Positions 5,751-34,997 of a stretch of 40,571 nucleotides of DNA are shown one piece after another; within the stretch, counting starts at the first letter, position 1, and each line of letters starts with the position of its first letter. The DNA is from Deltaproteobacteria bacterium RBG_16_54_11 (GTDB lineage: Bacteria > Desulfobacterota > B13-G15 > RBG-16-54-18): assembly GCA_001797905.1 (NCBI GenBank), contig MGQS01000109.1, positions 821 to 41,391 on the forward strand. The letters run 5' to 3'. The notes under the pieces are model-generated. The model was not told the origin of the DNA. It saw nothing but the letters and a program-made list of their open reading frames with translations, and did no database searches. Position numbers and translations under genes: made by a program.

Positions 5751-6559
5751 TGACAAGGATAAAAATCGGAGGGATTATATTTTTGTTGTCTTTTCTTTTC
5801 CTCGTTCCTCTCGTCCTTGCTGAAGAACTCTCTCCTAAGGCGGAAGAGCCGGCAGTTAAGGCGGAAGAGCCGGCAGTTAAGGTGGAAGAGCCGGCAGTTA
5901 AGGTGGAAGAGCCGGCTGTTAAGGCGGAAGAACCTGCTGCCAAGATAGCTGCTATAAAAGATGCCCGCGCCGTCTACACCGTGGGGGTGGGGGATGTGCT
6001 GACAATACGGCTCAGGGAGGGTGTCAAGCTGAGTGAGTACGATGCAACGGTCATGTCTACCGGCACGATCGTCATCTCCTTCATAGAGGTGGAGGCAGCA
6101 GGCCATACTATTCCCGAGATCAGGGAACAGGCCCAGAGGGAACTCGGCAAATACATTCGTGATTTCAGCGTGGACCTCATTCCAAGAGAATGGCGAGAAA
6201 AGAAGATCTTTGTCCTGGGCGAGGTAGAAAAGCCGGGGGTGTACAATTTCGCCGCAGGGATGACTGCCATGCAGGTACTCGCCTTGGCAGGGGGATATAA
6301 GGACTCCGCCCTGTTGAAGGATATGAGGATTATCAGAGGAAATCTCGATAATCCCGAGCTCATCCGGGTCAATCTGAAAGCGACGGCCAAGGGTAGAGAT
6401 GCGAAGGATGTTCTGCTTGCCCAGAATGACGTCATCTTCGTGCCCCGGAGCGCCATCGGCGACTGGAACGCCTTTATCAAGCTCTATATCCGTCCGACCG
6501 TTGAGGTTCTTTCCCTCCCTCTCAGTGGAGCGGCCACCATCCAGAGTTTCGGAAAGTGA
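5750..6559 (+). CDS. Polysaccharide export protein (Wza/Poly_export + SLBB type) with a repeat-containing N-terminal linker
   Basis: 269 aa. It has a signal peptide (MTRIKIGGIIFLLSFLFLVPLVLA), YTVGVGDVLTIRL (Poly_export-like) and ILGEVEKPGVYNF...AMQVLALAGG (SLBB-like). Its start overlaps the upstream stop (TGATG). Confidence 0.85.
   Translation: MTRIKIGGIIFLLSFLFLVPLVLAEELSPKAEEPAVKAEEPAVKVEEPAVKVEEPAVKAEEPAAKIAAIKDARAVYTVGVGDVLTIRLREGVKLSEYDATVMSTGTIVISFIEVEAAGHTIPEIREQAQRELGKYIRDFSVDLIPREWREKKIFVLGEVEKPGVYNFAAGMTAMQVLALAGGYKDSALLKDMRIIRGNLDNPELIRVNLKATAKGRDAKDVLLAQNDVIFVPRSAIGDWNAFIKLYIRPTVEVLSLPLSGAATIQSFGK
5840..5944 (+). repeat. In-frame 21-bp tandem repeat, 5 copies (GCGGAAGAGCCGGCAGTTAAG-like)
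   Basis: Read directly from the sequence. It encodes AEEPAVK-AEEPAVK-VEEPAVK-VEEPAVK-AEEPAAK. A degenerate copy (EELSPK) lies at 5822-5839. Confidence 0.95.
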
Positions 6560-24897: not shown

Positions 24898-25509
24898 CTA
24901 TTCCCTAATAAAACTCACATCGCCTTTCCCTGCCCGCAACACCCGAGGGTAGTCATCGGTAAGATCGACGATACTGGAGTGCGCTGCCACAATAGTTCCT
25001 CCATCGATGACCAGATCGAGGGCCTTCCCGAACATCTGGTCGATCTCCTCAGGGTCGCTATAGAGGCTCTCATCGGGTCTTATAACGCTCGTGGTGATGA
25101 TGGGGTGCTCAAGCTCCCTCACCAGGGCAAGGGAGATATTATTATCAGGGACCCTGATACCGACGGTCTTCTGGTTTGTCAGCATGATCTTGGGGACCAG
25201 CTTGGTGGCCTCTAAGATAAAGGTATAGGGGCCGGCGATGAGTGCTCGCATAATGCGATAGGCGTAATCGGGGACATGGGCATAATTGCTGATGTCCTTG
25301 AGATCTGCGCAGATGATGCTGAGGCGCTTATTCTTGCTGTGTTTCTTGAGGCGATGAACCCGTTCTATCGCATCCTTTTGATACAGATCGCATCCCAGGC
25401 CATAGATGGTATCGGTGGGATAGGCGATAACCCCTCCCTCCTTCAGAACGTCCACCACCTTGCGGATGAGCCTCGGTTGAGGATTTTTCGGATTGATTTT
25501 GATGATCAT
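24898..25509 (-). CDS. tsaC: L-threonylcarbamoyladenylate synthase (YrdC/TsaC family)
   Basis: 203 aa with GGVIAYPTDTIYGLGCDL and a YrdC-domain layout. Confidence 0.9.
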   Translation of the reverse strand: MIIKINPKNPQPRLIRKVVDVLKEGGVIAYPTDTIYGLGCDLYQKDAIERVHRLKKHSKNKRLSIICADLKDISNYAHVPDYAYRIMRALIAGPYTFILEATKLVPKIMLTNQKTVGIRVPDNNISLALVRELEHPIITTSVIRPDESLYSDPEEIDQMFGKALDLVIDGGTIVAAHSSIVDLTDDYPRVLRAGKGDVSFIRE

Positions 25510-25819
25510 GAGCCCTCGCCCCCTTTTAGGTGATCATTGCAACGCTGATTCACCAGTTTTTGCTTATGGTCTCGCGCCTCACCAATAACGATATAATTAT
25601 ATGGATACTCCGTGCAAAGGGCAAGGGAGATCTGCCGCTACAATGGTTACCGTAAAGGCGTTCCCGCCCGGAGCTAAAAACAAAGCCTTTCAAGCCTCAG
25701 TCATACTGATATCCCCGCCCCACGCACTGCGAACATAATGAGGCGCTTCCCCCGCAGCCTATATATAGTGCAGACCTTTAAGTGTGATCTTCTAAATACC
25801 TCAAAAAAGTCAAAATTTC

Positions 25820-25859
25820 ATAACAAAAAACTAACAGAAAAATAATACTAAATTAACAA
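25820..25859 (+). promoter_or_regulatory. Pho-box-like array: four 11-bp-phased direct repeats
   Basis: The array reads ATAACAA-AAAA-CTAACAG-AAAA-ATAATAC-TAAA-TTAACAA. The 16-mer TAACAAAAAACTAACA (25821-25836) is identical to 30602-30617 upstream of pstS. It lies about 60 bp upstream of ATG 25920. Confidence 0.5.
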
Positions 25860-25919
25860 TTAAAACTTATACATATATCAATATATGAGAAAAAATAAGA
25901 AGAAAAGCGAGGTACAGTT

Positions 25920-27806
25920 ATGATACGAGCAGATTTACATGCGCATTCGAAATATTCGGAACATCCTTCCGAGTGGTTCCTTCAGCGCTTAGGCGCCCAG
26001 GAGTCCTATGTCGAACCGGAGTTCATATACAGGACTGCAAAGGCCAGAAACATGGATCTGGTCACCATCACCGACCATAACAGGATAGATGGTTCAATTA
26101 TTCTGCAAGGCTTGCATCCTGAAGACACCTTCACCGGCGTAGAATCCACCGTATATTTCCCTGAGGACGGCTGCAAGGTGCACATCCTCGTCTATGGTTT
26201 AAGCGAGGACCAGTTCAGCTGCATACAAAAGATAAGAACCGATATTTACGAGATGCGGGCTTTTCTCAAGCAAGAGGATCTGGCCCATGCCGTTGCTCAC
26301 GCCACGTATGCTGTGAACGGTAAGATATCTATAGAACATCTGGAGAAACTGATACTGCTTTTTGATGTTTTTGAAGGTATAAACGGAGGCAGAGAAGAGA
26401 TCCATAATACCGTCTGGCTAAAAACGCTATCCTCTCTCACCCCTGAACATATCGCCAGGCTTTATGAAAGGTACAGGATTGAACCCTTCAGCGATACACC
26501 GTGGATAAAAGGATTTACCGGCGGGTCCGACGACCATGCCGGACTTTTTAATGGACAAAGCTATACCACGGCCGAGATCAAAACAGCACACGTAAAGGAT
26601 TTCCTCGATTGCATAAAGAACAAAGCAAGCATGCCGGCAGGAAGACACAACGATTACCAGTCGCTTGTTTTTATGGTCTACAAGGTAGCCTACGACTTTT
26701 CCAAACAGAAGAATGCAGGCAAGATATCGGGCACCATATTAAGCCAGCTGTTCAATCTTATCTTTGAGAAGCAGAAATTGGGGTTGAAAGATAGACTTAA
26801 GATAAAAAGACTGAAATCGATAGCGAAAAAGGACCCCAATTCTGAGATATATCTGCTGCTTTATGAGCTTGTAGATGAATTAAGGCCCGATAAAAAACTT
26901 ACCATCAACGAAAAACTCAATATAGTGCATGATAAGATAGCGAAAATAGCAGATGCGTTTTTGTATAGCTTTTTCAACTCATGTACAAATGATCTTAGAA
27001 CCGGAGACCTCATTGGCATTATAAAGAACATATCTGCGGCAATCCCGGGGATTTTCCTGTCCATTCCGTTTTTCAGCTCGCTGAACCATATGCATGATAA
27101 CCGTGATCTTCTGGAAGAATTGGGCAGGAGGTTTGCTATCGGCAGTTCCAAAAAAACAAAATCGGTGCTCTGGTTTACCGACACCTTGGTAGATCTTAAC
27201 GTTGTATCGACGACGCTCCAGCAGCTGGGGTGGCTCGCTCACAACAAGAACCTTGACCTGAAAATAGTGACCAGCCTCAGAGAAGAGGAAATGCACGCCT
27301 CGTTGTCGCCCAATATCGTAAACCTCCCTCATATATATTGCATCAAGATACCCGACTACGAATCATATGAGCTTAAGATACCGTCCATACTGAAGTCGCT
27401 GGAGATTATATACGATTTGAAGCCAGATGAGATCTATATATCGACACCAGGCCCTATAGGTCTGTTGGCGCTTCTTGCATCGAAACTACTCAAGGTGAAA
27501 TGCACCGGCATATATCATACTGATTTCGCCGCGGAGGTTTCAAAGATAATAGAAGACGAATCTGTCAGCAGACTTTTGGGGAACGTCGTTAAATGGTTCT
27601 ACGACAAGATGGATGAGATAGGAGTCTTCACGGAAGAGTATATCAAGCTACTCGGGGACAGGGGGTTTAATACCCGCAAGATGAGGATATTTAATAAAGG
27701 CATAGATTCGGCCCTGTTCTATCCGCTCAGCACCAAGGGTGTAGAGGTTGCCAAGAAGAAAGAAATACCCGACGGGATAAACCTGCTGTATGCCGGCAGG
27801 GTCTGA
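25920..27806 (+). CDS. PHP-domain phosphoesterase fused to a GT4 glycosyltransferase N-terminal domain; the ORF stops where the GT-B C-terminal domain should begin (probable truncation/pseudogene)
   Basis: 628 aa with IRADLHAHSKYSEHPSEW...VTITDHNRIDG (PHP) and, from about residue 415, KSVLWFTDTLVDLNVVS...KGIDSALFYP...INLLYAGRV-stop. The codons after the TGA still read KDKNIDFLLDVYRELATH, continuing the GT4 GRxSxEK-type motif, then TAA. Confidence 0.75.
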   Translation: MIRADLHAHSKYSEHPSEWFLQRLGAQESYVEPEFIYRTAKARNMDLVTITDHNRIDGSIILQGLHPEDTFTGVESTVYFPEDGCKVHILVYGLSEDQFSCIQKIRTDIYEMRAFLKQEDLAHAVAHATYAVNGKISIEHLEKLILLFDVFEGINGGREEIHNTVWLKTLSSLTPEHIARLYERYRIEPFSDTPWIKGFTGGSDDHAGLFNGQSYTTAEIKTAHVKDFLDCIKNKASMPAGRHNDYQSLVFMVYKVAYDFSKQKNAGKISGTILSQLFNLIFEKQKLGLKDRLKIKRLKSIAKKDPNSEIYLLLYELVDELRPDKKLTINEKLNIVHDKIAKIADAFLYSFFNSCTNDLRTGDLIGIIKNISAAIPGIFLSIPFFSSLNHMHDNRDLLEELGRRFAIGSSKKTKSVLWFTDTLVDLNVVSTTLQQLGWLAHNKNLDLKIVTSLREEEMHASLSPNIVNLPHIYCIKIPDYESYELKIPSILKSLEIIYDLKPDEIYISTPGPIGLLALLASKLLKVKCTGIYHTDFAAEVSKIIEDESVSRLLGNVVKWFYDKMDEIGVFTEEYIKLLGDRGFNTRKMRIFNKGIDSALFYPLSTKGVEVAKKKEIPDGINLLYAGRV

Positions 27807-27986
27807 AAAGACAAGAATATCGATTTCTTGCTTGATGTTTACAGAGAATTAGCCACGCATTAAGATAGTTTTCACTGCTGGTACAAGCACGAGTCTTTGC
27901 CCTTAGGCATTTCTCTATACTAAAAATTTGCAAAAGCTTGATTATCTGTTAGAATAAGAACAAATATTTTTATTACGGAGACCGTC

Positions 27987-28673
27987 ATGCCTGGCGAAAA
28001 GATCCTGGTGGTTGACGACGAGGAAGACATCCGTGAGTTGGTGAGGTATAACCTCGCCCGAGAAGGATATCAGGTAACCACCGTTGGCTCAGGGGAAGAG
28101 GCGCTGAAACAGGCCGGCGCAAAGCTGCCCAACCTCATTGTCTTGGATCTGATGCTGCCGGGGATTGATGGTTTTGATGTCTGCCGACAACTAAAGAGCG
28201 ATCCCCGCACGGCTCATATCCCCATTGTGATGCTCACGGTCAAGGGGGAGGAATCCGACATTGTGGTCGGCCTGGAGCTGGGGGCAGATGACTACATTAC
28301 CAAGCCCTTTAGCCCCAAGGTGCTCCTGGCGAGGTTAAAGGCCGTTCTGCGGCGGAGAGAGAAGGAGCCCATCGGCGAATCCGATGTCATGACTATCGGT
28401 GATTTGACGATCCATCCCGGTCGCCATGAGGTGTTGGTACAGGGGAAACCCGTCAAGCTCACATCCACTGAATTTCGTATTTTGCATCTCATGGCCCGAA
28501 AACCAGGTTGGGTCTTCACCCGTTTTCAGATCGTCGATGCCGCCCGCGGGGAAAATATCGCGGTGACCGATCGATCGGTGGACTTTCACATTACTTCCCT
28601 GCGGCGAAAGCTTGGTCCCTGTAGTGATTATATCGAGACCGTTTGGGGGGTAGGGTACCGCTTTAAGGAATAA
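27987..28673 (+). CDS. phoB: OmpR/PhoB-family response regulator (phosphate regulon type)
   Basis: 228 aa with KILVVDDEEDIREL, LIVLDLMLPGIDG, GADDYITKPFSPKVLLARLKAVLRR and a C-terminal winged helix ending GVGYRF. It is adjacent to a PhoR-like kinase and pstSCAB-phoU. Confidence 0.85.
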   Translation: MPGEKILVVDDEEDIRELVRYNLAREGYQVTTVGSGEEALKQAGAKLPNLIVLDLMLPGIDGFDVCRQLKSDPRTAHIPIVMLTVKGEESDIVVGLELGADDYITKPFSPKVLLARLKAVLRRREKEPIGESDVMTIGDLTIHPGRHEVLVQGKPVKLTSTEFRILHLMARKPGWVFTRFQIVDAARGENIAVTDRSVDFHITSLRRKLGPCSDYIETVWGVGYRFKE

Positions 28674-28677
28674 CCAT

Positions 28678-30453
28678 ATGCGCAGAAAAAGGCTCCTTTG
28701 GAAACTCTATCCGTCTTATGTGGTGATTATCCTGATCTCCATTATTACCGTGGGGATCTATGTCTCAACGGCATTGAAAAATTTTTATCTGCACAAAACA
28801 GCCGATGATCTTGAAGTTAGGGCGCGTCTTATCGAGAGAGAGGCCTCGGCGACCTTCAGCAAAGAGAACAAAAAATCACTCGATGCACTGTGCAAAACAC
28901 TCGGCAAGGCCGCTTCGACCCGCATAACCCTGATCCTTCCTTCCGGTGAGGTCGTGGGTGACTCCGACGAAGACCCACAGGCGATGGAGAACCACGCCGG
29001 CCGCCCGGAGGTAAAAAAAGCCCTTGCAGGACAAACAGGTATCTCCACCCGATATAGCGTAACCCTTCAGAAAGAGATGATGTACGTAGCAATACCTGTC
29101 AAAAAAGAGGGAGGTATTATTGTCGGGACGGTCAGGGTATCTATCCCTATTATTGCAATCGATACGGCCCTGCGCGCTATCTATGGGAAGATCGCCCTCT
29201 TTGGGGTATTTATGATCATCTTGACTGCGGCGCTAAGCCTCTTTATTGCCAGACGTATCAGCCAACCCATAGGAGAGCTAAAACGGGGCGCACAGCGTTT
29301 TGCCCAAGGAGACCTTACGCACAGGCTCTTTGTCGCCGGATCCAGGGAGCTGGGCGAGCTTACTGAGGCGCTGAACAAGATGGCTCTACAGCTTGGTGAA
29401 AAGATCCGCATGATCACCGAGCACCGCAATGAGTTAGAGACCATCCTTTCCGCTATGAGAGAGGGGGTGTTGGCTTGTGATGCCGATGAGCGCATTATCA
29501 CGCTCAATCAAGCCGCCGGATCTCTTCTGGGGATCGATCTCTCAACCGCAAAGGGGCACACGGTTCAAGAGATAGTCAGAAACGCCGATCTCCAACGCTT
29601 CGTCGGCGGGATTCCTTTAGGTCAGGGGGAGGTGGCAGCTGAGATCATCCTCCATGGCCCCGAGAAAAAATTCCTCCAGCTCAGCGGTACGGTGCTGCGT
29701 GATAGCGAAGGGAAGGGTATCGGCGCCCTTGTTGTTCTCAGTGACACAACCAGACTTCGGCATCTCGAGAACATAAGGCGTGAGTTCGTGGCCAACGTCT
29801 CTCATGAGCTCAAGACACCCATCACCTCTATCAAGGGGTATGTCGAGACGTTGCAAGAAGGGGCCATCGACGACAAAGGGAATGCCCGAAAGTTCCTCGA
29901 GATCATTTTCAAGCAAGCAGATCTTTTACATGCGCTCGTCGATGATTTGTTGAGCCTCTCCAAGATTGAACAGGAAGCTGAACGGGAAGAGGCGCACTTG
30001 GCCGAGGAACCGGTGATGCCAGTCATTGAAGCTGCTATTGCCGCATATGAGACAAGGGCCCGTGATCGCCGCATACAGGTGACCTTGCACTGTACCGATG
30101 ATGTCGTTGTTATGGCCAACGCCCAACTGCTTGAGCAGGCAGTGGGGAATCTTCTTGATAATGCCATTAAATACAGTGAGCCTGGAGGTACGGTAGAGAT
30201 TGAAGTAACCAAAAACAAGCACGAAGTTACCATAACAGTCGGCGATTGTGGATCAGGCATAGCCCCGGAGCACCTCCCCCGGCTTTTCGAACGGTTCTAC
30301 CGGGTGGACAAGGGGAGGAGCCGAGAGCTGGGGGGCACCGGGCTGGGCCTCGCCATTGTTAAACATATCATCCAGGCCCATGGTGGCGATGCCACCGTGG
30401 AAAGCACCCCCGGCAAGGGAAGTGCATTTACCCTACACCTGCCAAGGGCCTGA
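28678..30453 (+). CDS. phoR: PhoR-like sensor histidine kinase (2 TM + extracytoplasmic domain, HAMP, PAS, HisKA, HATPase_c)
   Basis: 591 aa with FVANVSHELKTPITSIKGYVETL (H-box), DNAIKYS (N-box) and GGTGLGLAIVKHIIQAHGG (G2-box). Confidence 0.8.
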   Translation: MRRKRLLWKLYPSYVVIILISIITVGIYVSTALKNFYLHKTADDLEVRARLIEREASATFSKENKKSLDALCKTLGKAASTRITLILPSGEVVGDSDEDPQAMENHAGRPEVKKALAGQTGISTRYSVTLQKEMMYVAIPVKKEGGIIVGTVRVSIPIIAIDTALRAIYGKIALFGVFMIILTAALSLFIARRISQPIGELKRGAQRFAQGDLTHRLFVAGSRELGELTEALNKMALQLGEKIRMITEHRNELETILSAMREGVLACDADERIITLNQAAGSLLGIDLSTAKGHTVQEIVRNADLQRFVGGIPLGQGEVAAEIILHGPEKKFLQLSGTVLRDSEGKGIGALVVLSDTTRLRHLENIRREFVANVSHELKTPITSIKGYVETLQEGAIDDKGNARKFLEIIFKQADLLHALVDDLLSLSKIEQEAEREEAHLAEEPVMPVIEAAIAAYETRARDRRIQVTLHCTDDVVVMANAQLLEQAVGNLLDNAIKYSEPGGTVEIEVTKNKHEVTITVGDCGSGIAPEHLPRLFERFYRVDKGRSRELGGTGLGLAIVKHIIQAHGGDATVESTPGKGSAFTLHLPRA

Positions 30454-30589
30454 CTCAAATTTCATATCCCTCTTAATTCACATAAAATTCTCATCCATCC
30501 CTCATACCCTTCTCACATTGGCTGCGTATTGTATACGGCATATGAGTTCATTGGGAAAGGAGGGATGCAGTGGAAATGCCCCTAGAATC

Positions 30590-30618
30590 CTGACACTTTT
30601 CTAACAAAAAACTAACAA
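30590..30618 (+). promoter_or_regulatory. Pho-box-like element upstream of pstS
   Basis: CTGACAC-TTTT-CTAACAA-AAAA-CTAACAA: three 7-bp direct repeats with 4-bp A/T spacers (11-bp phasing). The E. coli Pho box is CTGTCAT-A(A/T)A(A/T)-CTGTCA(C/T). It ends 33 bp before ATG 30651, with RBS AAGGAGG at 30638-30644. Confidence 0.6.
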
Positions 30619-30650
30619 TTATTGTTAAACTTAACTCAAGGAGGAAAAAA

Positions 30651-31685
30651 ATGAAGGTAAAAGGTCTTGCTATGGCTGTTTTTGCTTTGCTCTTGCTTAT
30701 GGCAGGCTCAGTCCAGGTAGGGAATGTGGTCATCACGGGAATGCTGAGCCCTGCCTGGTCTCAGGAGAAGATCATCAAGATAGACGGGTCGAGCACGGTC
30801 TATCCTATTACCGAAGCTGTTGCCGAGGAGTTTCAGAAGGCGAAGAAAGGAACGGTAAAGGTAACCGTCGGCATCTCTGGAACAGGTGGAGGTTTTAAAA
30901 AATTTTCCCGAGGAGAGACTGATATCTCTGATGCATCGAGACCCATTACCCAAAAGGAGATCGAGGCCTGCAAAGAGGCCGGCATCCAGTATATTGAGCT
31001 TCCCGTTGCCTATGACGGCTTGGCCGTGATGGTCAACCCGAAGAACAGCTGGGTGACCTCCATGACGGTAGCACAACTTAAGCGGATTTGGGAACCGGCG
31101 GCAGAGGGAAAAGTGACGAAATGGAGCTACGTAAACTCTGCCTGGCCCGATGTAGCTCTCAAGCTCTACGGTCCAGGGGTTGACTCGGGGACCTTCGACT
31201 ATTTTACCGAGGCCATCGTCGGAAAGTCCAGGGCAAGCAGAGGCGATTTTACCGCCAGCGAAGACGACAATGTACTGGTACAGGGGGTCGCCTCAGACAA
31301 GGGTGGCCTGGGGTTTTTCGGCTATGCCTACTATGCAGAAAACTCCGATAAGCTGAAATTAGTAGCGATTGACGGCGGGAAGGGCCCCGTTCTACCTTCG
31401 GAGAAGACAGTGATGGATGGGACTTACTATCCTCTCTCCAGGCCGATCTTTATCTATGTCAATAAGAAATCCGCCCAGAGGCCTGAGGTAAAAGAGTTCG
31501 TAGACTTTTATCTAAAAAATGCACCGACCTTGGTGAAACAGGTAAAGTACATTCCCCTTCCGGATATGGCCTATAAACTTGCTGCGGAAAGATTCTCAAA
31601 AAGGGTAACGGGCACCGTCTTCGGGGGTGAAGCCAAGGTGGGAGTGAAGATCGAGGATCTCCTTAAATTAGAGAAAAAGAAATAA
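30651..31685 (+). CDS. pstS: Phosphate ABC transporter substrate-binding protein PstS
   Basis: 344 aa with a signal peptide, [30 protein letters not shown] and [11 protein letters not shown]. Confidence 0.9.
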
Positions 31686-31692
31686 GGCACCC

Positions 31693-32583
31693 GTGAAACG
31701 TAAGATATCCACCAAGATTAAAGAGAGGGGCATTGAGGGGCTGCTGCTCCTCAGTGCCCTTTCTTCTATTATGATCACCCTGAGCATCGTCTTTATCCTT
31801 TTCTATGAGGCCCTGGGATTTTTTAAAGACGTATCCGTATGGGAGTTTCTTACCGGAAGACGGTGGACCCCCCTCTTTGCCAACCCCAAATTTGGCATAC
31901 TGCCCCTGGTGACTGGTACTCTCTTGGTCACCGGGATTGCGGTAGCAGTGGCCTTGCCAGTGGGGCTCATTGTTGCCGTCTATCTCAGTGAATACGCCCC
32001 CTTCAAAATCAAGGAGGTGGTCAAGCCTATCCTGGAGCTCCTGGCCGCTGTCCCCACCGTCGTCTACGGTTATTTTGCCCTGCTCTTCCTCACACCCATC
32101 TTACAGCAGTTGATCACGACGCTCTCCGGATTCAATGCCTTAAGCCCTGGGATCATCATGGGCATCATGATCATTCCGTATGTCAGTTCGGTGAGTGAGG
32201 ATGCCATGAAGGCAGTTCCCATGCATATCAGAGAAGGGTCTTATGCAATGGGGGCCACAAAGTTTCAGACTGCTTTCAAAGTGGTCATCCCTGCTGCCTT
32301 TTCCGGGATTGCCGCCGCCTTTATTGTAGGCATATCAAGGGCCATTGGAGAAACGATGGTTGTGGCCATTGCCGCGGGCATGATGCCCAATTTCACGTTT
32401 AATCCCATTGAACCTATCCAGACCTTGACTGCGTATATCGTCGGCGTCAGTTTAGGAGACGTTCCCCATGGTACCATCGAATATAAGACCATCTTTGCTG
32501 CGGGGATTACGCTATTTCTGATGACCCTCGTGCTGAATATTCTTGGGTTCTGGTTCAGGAAAAGGATTAGGGAGGTCTATTAG
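31693..32583 (+). CDS. pstC: Phosphate ABC transporter permease PstC
   Basis: 296 aa with 6 TM-like segments and the EAA-loop region EDAMKAVPMHIREGSYAMGATKFQT. GTG start. Confidence 0.9.
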   Translation: MKRKISTKIKERGIEGLLLLSALSSIMITLSIVFILFYEALGFFKDVSVWEFLTGRRWTPLFANPKFGILPLVTGTLLVTGIAVAVALPVGLIVAVYLSEYAPFKIKEVVKPILELLAAVPTVVYGYFALLFLTPILQQLITTLSGFNALSPGIIMGIMIIPYVSSVSEDAMKAVPMHIREGSYAMGATKFQTAFKVVIPAAFSGIAAAFIVGISRAIGETMVVAIAAGMMPNFTFNPIEPIQTLTAYIVGVSLGDVPHGTIEYKTIFAAGITLFLMTLVLNILGFWFRKRIREVY

Positions 32584-32585
32584 AT

Positions 32586-33518
32586 ATGCAAGCAACTGAG
32601 CAGCCTGAAATCCTCGAAATGAGGAAGAGGATCTCCTCGAACAAGCTTCGGGACCACATCTTTTGGATCGTCGGATTATTCTCAACCCTCATCGGCTTCG
32701 CCCTCCTTTTTACGCTCATCATCGATCTCTTCATTGATGGTTTCCCGAGGCTGAGCTGGCACTTTTTTACCTCCTACCCATCCCGATTTCCGGAACAGGC
32801 AGGGATTCTTTCCGCCTGGGTTGGAACGATACTGGTGATGATGGTGACTGCAGCCGCAGCCGTTCCTTTAGGGATTGCCGCCGGGATATACTTGGAGGAA
32901 TATGGAAAGAAGAATTGGCTAACCCACCTCATTGAGATCAATATGAATAATCTTGCCGGGGTCCCTTCCATCATCTATGGCCTCTTGGCCCTCTGGTTGT
33001 TCGTCTATTTCTTAAAATTTGGAGAGAGTATTCTGACCGGTGGGTTAACGCTGGGTCTCTTGATCCTCCCCATGGTAGTGATTGCCACACGGGAATCCAT
33101 CCGAGCGATCCCCAATTCTATTCGCGAGGCATCCTATGCCCTGGGTGCTTCGAAATGGCAGACCATCAAGGATCACATCATCCCTTATTCCGTTGGCGGA
33201 ATCCTGACAGGCATGATCATTGGGCTGTCCAGGGCCATTGGAGAGACAGCCCCCATTATTACGGTAGGCGCCCTAACCTTCATCGCCTTTCTTCCTTCAT
33301 CACCTGTCACTTCAGGGTTCCCTTTTCTTTCTTTCAAGTGGCTCCTTGACCCCTTTACCGTCATGCCCATCCAGATGTTCAATTGGATATCCAGGCCACA
33401 GACCGCATTCCACCTGAATGCGGCAGCTGCCGGGATCGTCCTCCTGGTGATGACCCTCGTGATGAACGGATTTGCTATCTATGTCAGATACCGGTTCAGA
33501 AAGAGAATAAAGTGGTAA
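32586..33518 (+). CDS. pstA: Phosphate ABC transporter permease PstA
   Basis: 310 aa with [25 protein letters not shown] and [12 protein letters not shown]. Confidence 0.9.
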
Positions 33519-33519
33519 C

Positions 33520-34311
33520 ATGGCAGGATTGGTGCCGGGTATGATCCCTGAAAAACTTAAAGCTGAAGTCAAAGGCCTCAATTTTTATTACAACGATCTT
33601 AAAGCCCTTAAGGACATCCATCTGCCGATAGCCAATAAACTGATTACCGCCTTGATCGGGCCTTCCGGCTGCGGCAAAACAACCTATCTTCGCTGTTTTA
33701 ATCGCATGCACGACCTTTATCCGAACAATCGTTACGAGGGTGAGATCATCTTATACCCTGAGCGAGTTAATATCGTCGACCCGCGGATAGATCCTATCGA
33801 GGTGCGGATGCGGATCAGTATGGTTTTTCAGAAACCCAACCCCTTTCCCAAAACGGTCTTTGAAAATGTTGCCTATGGCCTGAGGGTCAGGGGGGTAAAT
33901 AAAAAATGCCTCTTAGATGAAAAAGTGGAAAAGGCATTGAAACAGGCAGCCCTCTGGGATGAGGTGAAAGACAGGATAGATGACCTCGCTTTCAATCTTT
34001 CCGGGGGGCAGCAGCAACGCCTCTGTATCGCGAGGGCGCTGGCGACCAATCCCGAGATCCTCCTCTTCGATGAACCTACCTCTGCCCTTGATCCTACGGC
34101 TACAGCAAAGATCGAAGAACTGATCCTACAACTCAAAAAAGAAGTGACCATTATTATTGTTACGCACAATATGCAACAAGCAGCACGTGTCTCTGATTAT
34201 ACGGCGTTCATGTATCTGGGAGAGATCATCGAGTTCGATAGAACGGATAAGGTCTTTACTCGACCATCGCAGAAGTTAACCGAGGAATACATAACGGGCC
34301 GCTTCGGCTAA
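33520..34311 (+). CDS. pstB: Phosphate ABC transporter ATP-binding protein PstB
   Basis: 263 aa with [37 protein letters not shown] and a C-terminus ending YITGRFG. Confidence 0.95.
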
Positions 34312-34322
34312 GAGGGAGAGCG

Positions 34323-34997
34323 ATGAAGAGACATCTGGAACGGGAACTCGCAAAGATCAGAAAGAAGATCCTCAGCTTAAGTGCCATGGTAGAGGGGAAT
34401 ATCGAGAAGGCCATACTATCCCTTACGCGGCATGAGATTAAGCTGGCGCAAGAGGTTATCGAGAGCGATCACGAGATCGATCATTTTGAGGTGGAGATAG
34501 AGGAGGATTGTCTCAAGATCCTTGCCCTCTATCAGCCGGCGGCCATCGATTTGCGATATGTGGTGGGGATCTTGAAGATGAATAACGATTTGGAGCGCAT
34601 GGGTGATTTGGCCGTCAACATCGCCGAGCGCTCGGCCTATCTGGCTGACAAGAAGGGGACAAAGCTCTTTCTTGATTTTACGCAGATGGGGGAAAAGACC
34701 ATCGCCATGGTAAAAAAGGCCTTAGACTCTCTCATCAAGATGGATGCCACTATGGCCAGGGAGGTCTGCGCCGCCGACGACGAAGTGGATGAGATGAACA
34801 GAAAGATACTCCTCCTCATTCAGGATTACATCGAAAAAAACCCCCACGAGGTAAAGATTCTCATTCATCTCCTCCTCGTCTCACGCCATTTGGAGCGTAT
34901 TGCCGATCAAGCCACCAATATTGCCGAGGACGTGATCTACATGATTGAGGGTGTCATCATACGCCATCGCGCAGAGGACTATACCCGCCACGATTAA
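34323..34997 (+). CDS. phoU: Phosphate signalling complex protein PhoU
   Basis: 224 aa. It has the duplicated PhoU repeat with NNDLERMGDLAVNIAE and SRHLERIADQATNIAEDVIY. Confidence 0.95.
   Translation: MKRHLERELAKIRKKILSLSAMVEGNIEKAILSLTRHEIKLAQEVIESDHEIDHFEVEIEEDCLKILALYQPAAIDLRYVVGILKMNNDLERMGDLAVNIAERSAYLADKKGTKLFLDFTQMGEKTIAMVKKALDSLIKMDATMAREVCAADDEVDEMNRKILLLIQDYIEKNPHEVKILIHLLLVSRHLERIADQATNIAEDVIYMIEGVIIRHRAEDYTRHD

Follow-up and report, generated by a model that had tools for sequence, protein, structure and literature searches.

Putative Pho boxes at pstS and at a truncated phosphoesterase-glycosyltransferase gene in an uncultured Thermodesulfobacteriota family

We analyzed a stretch of 40,571 nucleotides (hereafter, the window) from the metagenome-assembled genome (MAG) of Deltaproteobacteria bacterium RBG_16_54_11 (contig MGQS01000109.1, positions 821 to 41,391), and focused on arrays of direct repeats upstream of two genes, pstS and a gene that fuses a PHP phosphoesterase to a GT4 glycosyltransferase (GT; hereafter, PHP-GT). 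The gene order is truncated PHP-GT, phoB, phoR, pstSCAB and phoU, based on Pfam and NCBIfam. Three repeat arrays at this locus are probably Pho boxes, that is, operators to which the PhoB-like regulator (27987-28673) would bind once phosphorylated. The elements concerned are listed below in whole-window coordinates.

25809-25863, forward strand: putative Pho-box array of PHP-GT, clear 11-bp units at 25820, 25831, 25842 and 25853, weak fifth at 25809
25867-25873, forward strand: candidate PHP-GT -10 element (TTATACA), 7-8 bp past the last repeat core
25920-27806, forward strand: truncated PHP phosphoesterase-GT4 gene, 628 codons, stop TGA at 27804-27806
30477-30522, forward strand: upstream pstS array (block A), four units
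30551-30566, forward strand: conserved block TTGGGAAAGGAGGGAT, between blocks A and B of pstS
30590-30622, forward strand: proximal pstS array (block B), the site described in an earlier note, three units, promoter-proximal
30623-30631, forward strand: candidate extended -10 of pstS, TGTTAAACT, resembling the phoB -10 TGTTAGAAT
30651-34997, forward strand: pstS-pstC-pstA-pstB-phoU operon (Pfam/NCBIfam)

Phased repeats upstream of pstS and PHP-GT

The earlier note on this DNA had drawn attention to an identical 16-mer, TAACAAAAAACTAACA, at 25821-25836 and 30602-30617. Both copies were recovered, no third copy exists on either strand of the 2.37-Mb, 139-contig assembly, and both are embedded in direct-repeat arrays with an 11-bp phase. 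The phased pstS units that the note had read were confirmed (CTGACACTTTT / CTAACAAAAAA / CTAACAATTAT, 30590-30622), as were its four PHP-GT units (ATAACAAAAAA / CTAACAGAAAA / ATAATACTAAA / TTAACAATTAA, 25820-25863), to which a weak fifth could be added (GTCAAAATTTC, 25809-25819). The PHP-GT array is near-identical in the relatives L081, L082, L085 and L108. A second array upstream of pstS, the four units of block A (TTCACAT-AAAA / TTCTCAT-CCAT / CCCTCAT-ACCC / TTCTCAC-ATTG), had been overlooked. At exact 11-bp spacing there are three units in the proximal pstS array, four in the upstream pstS array and four to five at PHP-GT, and the pstS arrays lie 29-174 bp upstream of the pstS start. A -10-like hexamer follows the last core by 7 bp at PHP-GT and at the proximal pstS array, and by 10 bp at the upstream pstS array (candidate -10 TATTGT, 30527-30532). 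No -35 match was found at the arrays in the place where these candidate hexamers would need one, nor upstream of the candidate extended -10 of pstS.

Exact dispersed 16-mer repeats are not rare, with two in the window besides TAACAAAAAACTAACA (three in all), so the exact repeat is unremarkable alone and the case rests on pattern counts, position weight matrices (PWMs) and conservation. A run of repeated 16-mers also brought up a tandem repeat at 5836-5901, with a 21-bp period and about three copies. The strict pattern [CAT]T[AG]ACA-N5-[CAT]T[AG]ACA has six matches in the genome, all intergenic, and three of the six are at the pstS and PHP-GT sites. The other three (C96, C111 and C132) were rejected, having spacers that are not A/T and no plausible gene downstream. 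With a PWM built from seven units of the window, the training sites scored 26-33 bits and the next best match in the genome 19.5. With a PWM built from related genomes, the three arrays of the locus reached 30-38 bits over four units and were the only arrays above the maximum of the reversed-genome control (27). Weaker matches (C71, C75, C132, C8, C82, C52 and others) scored below that maximum and were dropped; the genes behind them resemble, by eye, Fic, AraC/GyrI-like, M23 peptidase and YeeE-like proteins.

The genome-wide scan that the earlier note had proposed thus singled out the arrays of the locus, and the expected hits at further phosphate genes did not appear, few or no such targets being present. 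The search for such genes covered Pit, PhoD, PhoA and PPK1, and not PhoX, ugp or phn; all four were missing in the assembly, which is 86% complete, and the scan is thus largely uninformative about a wider regulon. As far as it is visible in this genome, the regulon consists of pstSCAB-phoU and the remnant of PHP-GT. In an Rfam scan of 25400-30800, no credible match was obtained.

Conservation of the pstS spacer within the family

The phoR-pstS spacer was aligned across eight family genomes as a phylogenetic footprint. Three conserved blocks were detected, with mean column identities of 0.855 (block A), 0.84 (TTGGGAAAGGAGGGAT) and 0.905 (block B), against 0.64-0.73 between them. Conservation of the sites at orthologous pstS promoters, a check that the earlier note had suggested, was thereby found, as the arrays are the most conserved blocks of the spacer. 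Within the arrays of the same alignment, the cores (0.93) are more conserved than the spacers. The family consensus from 52 unique units reads C-T-(C/A)-A-(C/T)-A, followed by A/T.

A pattern search covered 13 family genomes from about 10 genera, using TAACANAAAACTAACA with at most one mismatch. Nine of the 12 matches fell either between phoR and pstS (seven genomes) or ahead of PHP-GT (two genomes), the latter gene being found in only two of the 13 genomes; the pattern read backwards, as a control, gave five matches.

The two pstS arrays may not play the same part. A TAnnGT hexamer stands exactly 10 bp past the upstream array in 8/8 family genomes, and the distance between blocks A and B varies from 72 to 78 bp, which indicates that they are separate sites. 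Both observations would fit a proximal array that is bound by PhoB but is mainly negative or modulating, for example a roadblock in a transcript from the upstream array, and not a classical activating box. This is improbable in our estimation, as the proximal array is the most conserved block, precedes a candidate extended -10 that resembles the one of phoB, and shares its core-to-hexamer geometry with PHP-GT promoters of two phyla. An activating proximal box is therefore the preferred reading.

The middle block, TTGGGAAAGGAGGGAT, looks Shine-Dalgarno-like, and no conserved small open reading frame (ORF) follows it in the eight genomes. A leader-peptide start was rejected for this block since the small ORFs vary in frame and length between genomes, and a sigma-54 promoter was rejected since the GG-GC spacing is not constant. 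In distant pstS leaders from several phyla (L008, L009, L011, L012, L013 and L015), a different element, CG(T/C)TG(T/C)CG(A/G)AGCCC(G/A)TG, lies between two phased arrays; read as a small ORF, it would encode the peptide RCRSPC, and it is absent from the window.

Occurrence of the arrays in other phyla

The same design was detected well outside the family, including in the cultured Desulfuromusa kysingii DSM 7343, Seleniivibrio woodruffii and Malonomonas rubra DSM 5091. In Desulfuromusa kysingii, CTAACA-N5-CTAACA is located directly 3' of phoR. Deferribacterales pstS promoters carry CTGACAT-N4-TTAACAA-N4-TTTACAT, and in front of PHP-GT this order has four phased (C/A/T)TGACA units ahead of (C)ATATAT, with the geometry CTGACAG-7/8 bp-(C)ATATAT as at the PHP-GT gene of the window. 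When the family PWM was applied with correction for local composition, the upstream regions of 71 PHP-GT genes from other phyla had a median score of 4.7 versus -3.8 for 317 neighbouring genes (Mann-Whitney p = 3e-14); several of the top-scoring "control" genes are pst, phoB or olsB-like. Genes for pst, phoU or phoBR are present within 6 kb at 17 of 80 PHP-GT loci, and at one Verrucomicrobiota locus homologs of pstS, pstC/A and phoU are directly upstream of PHP-GT.

The spacers are A/T-rich with 11-bp phasing, a consensus scan takes CTGACA-18-AACAAT as a weak sigma-70 match, and two further 16-mers are duplicated by chance in the window; the repeats could accordingly be phased A-tracts, -35-like hexamers (CTGACA resembling TTGACA) or chance low-complexity A/T words that need no dedicated regulator. 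Such an origin is very improbable, given that the cores are more conserved than the spacers, that the spacers of the upstream pstS array contain G+C, that the arrays are unique in the genome, and that the pattern recurs at orthologous promoters across phyla. Binding sites of a phosphate regulator are our preferred reading.

Regulator, kinase and pst operon

The candidate regulatory genes and their promoter are as follows.

27928-27955, forward strand: phoB promoter, TTGCAA-17-TAGAAT with a TGT extended -10, sigma-70-type, kept in L081, L082 and L085
27987-28673, forward strand: PhoB-like OmpR-family response regulator, best NCBIfam match TIGR02154 PhoB, 252.8 bits
28678-30453, forward strand: PhoR-like histidine kinase with sCache, HAMP, PAS, HisKA and HATPase domains, PnpS/WalK/PhoR type

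Among the NCBIfam models, those of PhoB and PhoR rank first or nearly so for the regulator and the kinase, and the assignment is supported by the position of the pair beside pstSCAB-phoU. No phased site precedes phoB, as the earlier note had observed; the lone reverse CTAACAG that it had found there (27946-27952) is part of the extended -10 TGTTAGAAT of the sigma-70-type promoter.

PhoB (94% identity to its L082 ortholog) and PhoR (83%) are native to the family lineage by their identity to the family. PstS matches TIGR02136 at 323 bits (cut-off 206.6), and the pst operon (30651-33518) is chimeric, with a junction near 30725. The promoter and about 25 first pstS codons, encoding the signal peptide, match family relatives and are thus native; the remaining PstS and PstC/A/B have 81-89% identity to Syntrophaceae/Thermodesulfobacteriota MAGs (L001, L003) and 30-56% to L082. 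As judged from these identities, the pst promoter and signal-peptide codons were retained while a foreign operon replaced the rest.

Several points weigh against the arrays being Pho boxes. Both proteins score below the NCBIfam cut-offs, the regulator for PhoB (252.8 vs 296.2) and the kinase for PhoR (319.6 vs 334.2). The repeat sites are A/T-rich. The best -10 candidate lies 7 bp from the last core at two arrays, different from the 10 bp between the last Pho-box core and the -10 at E. coli pstS. Were a promoter driven by the upstream pstS array, its transcript would contain the proximal array, whose role could then be activating or modulating. No further array target is present in the 86%-complete genome, so enrichment across a regulon is not demonstrable here.

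The low PhoB score would also suit operators of a different OmpR-family regulator, for instance one of envelope or osmotic stress, that stand by chance at pstS and PHP-GT. Direct repeats in tandem with an 11-bp period occur throughout the OmpR/PhoB family, and two other OmpR-family regulators, and only two, were found in the genome (C56:30790-31458 and C66:6177-6716). Little probability attaches to this, as genera of the family retain the exact site between phoR and pstS, pstS of Deferribacterales and of Desulfuromusa carries a motif of the same type, and the PHP-GT family is tied to pst, phoU or phoBR in many phyla. The adjacent PhoB-like protein is thus retained as the probable regulator.

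Comparison with known Pho boxes

The PHO box is built from direct repeats of 11 nt, in each of which seven bases are conserved and four vary, and the consensus is species-dependent (PMC4415409). In B. subtilis, PhoP sites comprise four TT(A/T/C)ACA-like units with an 11-bp period (Eder et al. 1999, as cited in PMC11870197). In Desulfovibrio vulgaris, DNA affinity purification with array readout (DAP-chip) of PhoB (DVU1083) revealed repeats of 6 bp, (c/t)GT(n)AC, separated by 4 bp (PMC3333781). The Pho-box architecture proposed in the earlier note agrees with this background, as the arrays fit both the 11-nt design of PMC4415409 and the four-unit design of B. subtilis. Its description of the motif as lineage-specific was not borne out: the motif is a variant of the B. 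subtilis and Desulfovibrio boxes and recurs in Desulfuromusa and Deferribacterales. On these comparisons, it is a modified form of a known word and not a new one.

The likeness to E. coli includes the 11-bp direct repeats, made up of 7 bp of core and 4 bp of A/T-rich spacer, and their position before pstS, putatively in the place of a -35. A single base separates the core CT(A/C/G)A(C/T)A from both E. coli CTGTCA and D. vulgaris (c/t)GTnAC, the window unit CTGACAC is one base from E. coli CTGTCAC, and TTCTCAT of the upstream array shares xTxTCAT with E. coli CTGTCAT (PMC4415409, PMC3333781). The window differs from E. coli in its core, mostly CTAACA or CTCAT, in having three to five units per site, and in the 7-bp gap to the best -10 candidates at two arrays. 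The kinases also differ, as E. coli PhoR is not known to have the extracytoplasmic Cache domain and the HAMP domain that the window kinase carries.

With B. subtilis, the window shares four units at 11-bp periodicity, a core that is literally TTAACA or xTAACA at 25853, and a kinase of PhoR/WalK/PnpS type. Its first core base is usually C or A, not T, and its source is a Gram-negative-type Thermodesulfobacteriota MAG, without the teichoic and teichuronic acid targets. D. vulgaris belongs to the same phylum-level group and has a box target upstream of pstSCA; GTnAC is one base from CTAAC, and the pstS relatives L001 and L003 carry TGTAACG-N4-TGTAACA. The differences are that core position 1 is C, not G, throughout the family of the window, and that there are more units per site.

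From these features we propose the following mechanism. Under phosphate scarcity, the PhoR-like kinase, together with PstSCAB and PhoU, would phosphorylate the regulator, dimers of which would bind head-to-tail on successive 11-bp units consisting of the core CT(A/C/G)A(C/T)A and an A/T-rich spacer. The bound regulator would take the place of the missing -35 and recruit RNA polymerase to the weak -10 elements 7-10 bp downstream, so that pstSCAB-phoU and the PHP-GT4 gene would be switched on. The phoBR genes would be driven by their own sigma-70-type promoter. The regulatory mechanism itself is textbook. The sequence features point to a genuine Pho-box system, well conserved and ordinary in kind, in a lineage where such a system is undescribed.

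A deletion truncated PHP-GT and removed a porin gene

To characterize the truncated PHP-GT gene, we compared the window with two metagenome contigs, L081 and L082, that have 83-87% DNA identity to it. They retain every unit of the PHP-GT and pstS arrays in a fuller layout: yrdC, array, PHP-GT (798 residues), second array, a Porin_5 gene, a terminator, the phoBR promoter and genes, array, and pstS.

27807-27921, forward strand: remnant GT coding sequence to 27860 and deletion junction at 27861-27921, from comparison with L082

Relative to L082, 2456 bp are missing from the window, comprising the C-terminal (Glycos_transf_1) half of the GT, the porin array, the Porin_5 gene and the terminator. 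The deleted stretch was found nowhere else in the assembly, and no Porin_5 gene was detected in the 86%-complete assembly. The alignment indicates that the porin, the terminator and the donor-binding GT half were lost in one 2.4-kb deletion. The TCA codon of the relatives has in addition become TGA at 27804-27806, and the frame ends 18 codons before the junction stop. In L085 the same genes are deleted with breakpoints different from those of the window, so its deletion arose independently. A repeat element suspected to be common to the yrdC/PHP-GT spacer and the relatives' porin/phoB spacer was rejected, as BLAST gave no second copy.

No terminator-like site is left between PHP-GT and phoB in the window. 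With the terminator gone, read-through from the PHP-GT array is possible, and phoBR may be transcribed in this way.

In the relatives, the Porin_5-family gene has a putative four-unit Pho-box array of its own (L081:10398-10827, L082:9600-9955). The phased units are CTAACT / CTAACA / CTCAAT / CTAATT in L081, and L082 has CTCAC in place of CTAAC; this exchange between orthologous arrays indicates that the two words belong to one motif class. The gene likely encodes a phosphate-starvation porin.

The window protein retains the PHP domain and a helical linker, and of the GT-B fold it has the N-terminal half. It stops at residue 628 and is without the complete GT-B domain (Glyco_transf_4 plus Glycos_transf_1), different from its relatives of about 798 residues, which have both halves. 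Because the missing half binds the sugar donor, the window copy is predicted to be unable to do so. A structure model of residues 1-260 (predicted local distance difference test, pLDDT, 88) showed a PHP fold, with Foldseek matches to the RNase AM PHP protein (7ug9, E = 6.6e-9) and TM0559 (2anu). The metal ligands H7, H9, D52, H53, E75, H88, H127, D204 and H206 are invariant in 44 sequences including the window copy.

The ratio of nonsynonymous to synonymous substitution rates (dN/dS) versus relatives is 0.10-0.16 in all pairs, truncated or not, and is uninformative on relaxed selection; values without relaxation are compatible either with a recent deletion or with a retained PHP function. Four independent copies without the donor-binding half were identified (window, 27775-27921; L085:1979-2130; L096:5001-6944; L199:3723-5606), those of L096 and L199 being truncated at the same domain boundary as the window. 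Many representative entries of 580-645 residues end at the same profile position, some of which may be contig-end fragments. The earlier note had placed the PHP-GT gene of the window in the phosphate-starvation response; the comparative tests support this for the family, and the gene itself is a remnant here.

The PHP-GT family and phosphate limitation

PHP-GT family members occur in more than 590 species genomes of many phyla. A profile search gave 3232 clusters (50% identity) at E <= 1e-30, part of which may be plain GT4 proteins; the family comprises several hundred or more such clusters. When a full-length relative was modelled (pLDDT 86.5), its C-terminal GT4 domain showed a GT-B fold like those of BshA, MshA, sucrose-phosphate synthase and PimA. 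At nine loci, PHP-GT is accompanied by a pair of OlsB-like and OlsA-like aminolipid genes.

Other neighbours recur as well. At eight loci (L117:1789-4331 and seven more, in Spirochaetota, FCPU426, Zixibacteria, Ignavibacteria and Nitrospirae), PHP-GT is adjoined by a gene for a PhoU-domain/APH/choline-kinase-like fusion and a RimK-like ATP-grasp gene. A radical SAM gene is present beside PHP-GT at twelve loci, mostly directly downstream (L185:8435-9697 and eleven more) and mainly in Desulfuromonadales and Deferribacterales. The PHP-GT ortholog of a Fibrobacteres MAG (L150:6001-6780) has an in-frame stop within its first 260 codons.

A characterized member of the family is probably Dde_3613 ("Agt") of Desulfovibrio (Oleidesulfovibrio) alaskensis G20, judging from its architecture and annotation and from homologs in other Desulfovibrionaceae. 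Its transposon mutant was without all glycolipids under phosphate limitation, and grew poorly under this condition only (PMC5193443). Genetically, Dde_3613 is thus known to make the glycolipids that take over from phospholipids when phosphate is limiting. Desulfovibrionaceae hold full-length homologs of the window protein, and the one in Solidesulfovibrio aerotolerans is collinear over all 628 window residues (32% identity, E = 1e-100). A role of this type of enzyme in phosphate starvation has thus probably been established by genetics already; the window copy differs in being without the donor-binding half. In Desulfovibrionaceae, PHP-GT follows a zinc-finger-type gene, with no promoter there to compare.

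PHP-GT also resembles the PlcP-Agt lipid-renovation operon. The phosphoesterase PlcP is a calcineurin-like metallophosphoesterase and is not known to have a PHP fold. In Sinorhizobium, SAR11 and Phaeobacter, the operon expresses a phosphoesterase and a GT4 glycosyltransferase from a Pho-box promoter, and glycolipids replace phospholipids (PMC4796936). Joint expression of these two activities, in PHP-GT from a putative Pho-box promoter, is the shared feature; PlcP and Agt are two separate proteins, whereas the PHP-GT family has a single fusion. Given its PHP fold and fused architecture, PHP-GT appears as an analog and is not a member of the PlcP-Agt module.

We also put forward a tentative idea, which we regard as possible but rather doubtful. 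The PHP domain could supply the diacylglycerol acceptor, acting like a phospholipase C or a phosphatidate phosphatase, and the fusion would then be a self-contained, Pho-controlled enzyme of lipid renovation on one polypeptide in many anaerobic phyla. Truncated copies could persist as stand-alone phosphate-releasing phosphoesterases and need not be dead genes, and the deletion in the window may have put phoBR under a Pho box of its own.

Implications

The arrays provide an operator model, CT(A/C/G)A(C/T)A with an 11-bp phase, for an uncultured Thermodesulfobacteriota family, and the T(G/A)ACA-type box at pstS of Desulfuromusa and Deferribacterales would aid the annotation of Pho regulons in anaerobes. 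Together with the phosphate-starvation glycolipids of D. alaskensis, the link between a putative Pho promoter and the PHP-GT4 family favours taking glycolipids of this kind as indicators that phosphorus is limiting in anoxic habitats. It also draws attention to the PHP domain of a glycolipid-synthase-type enzyme.

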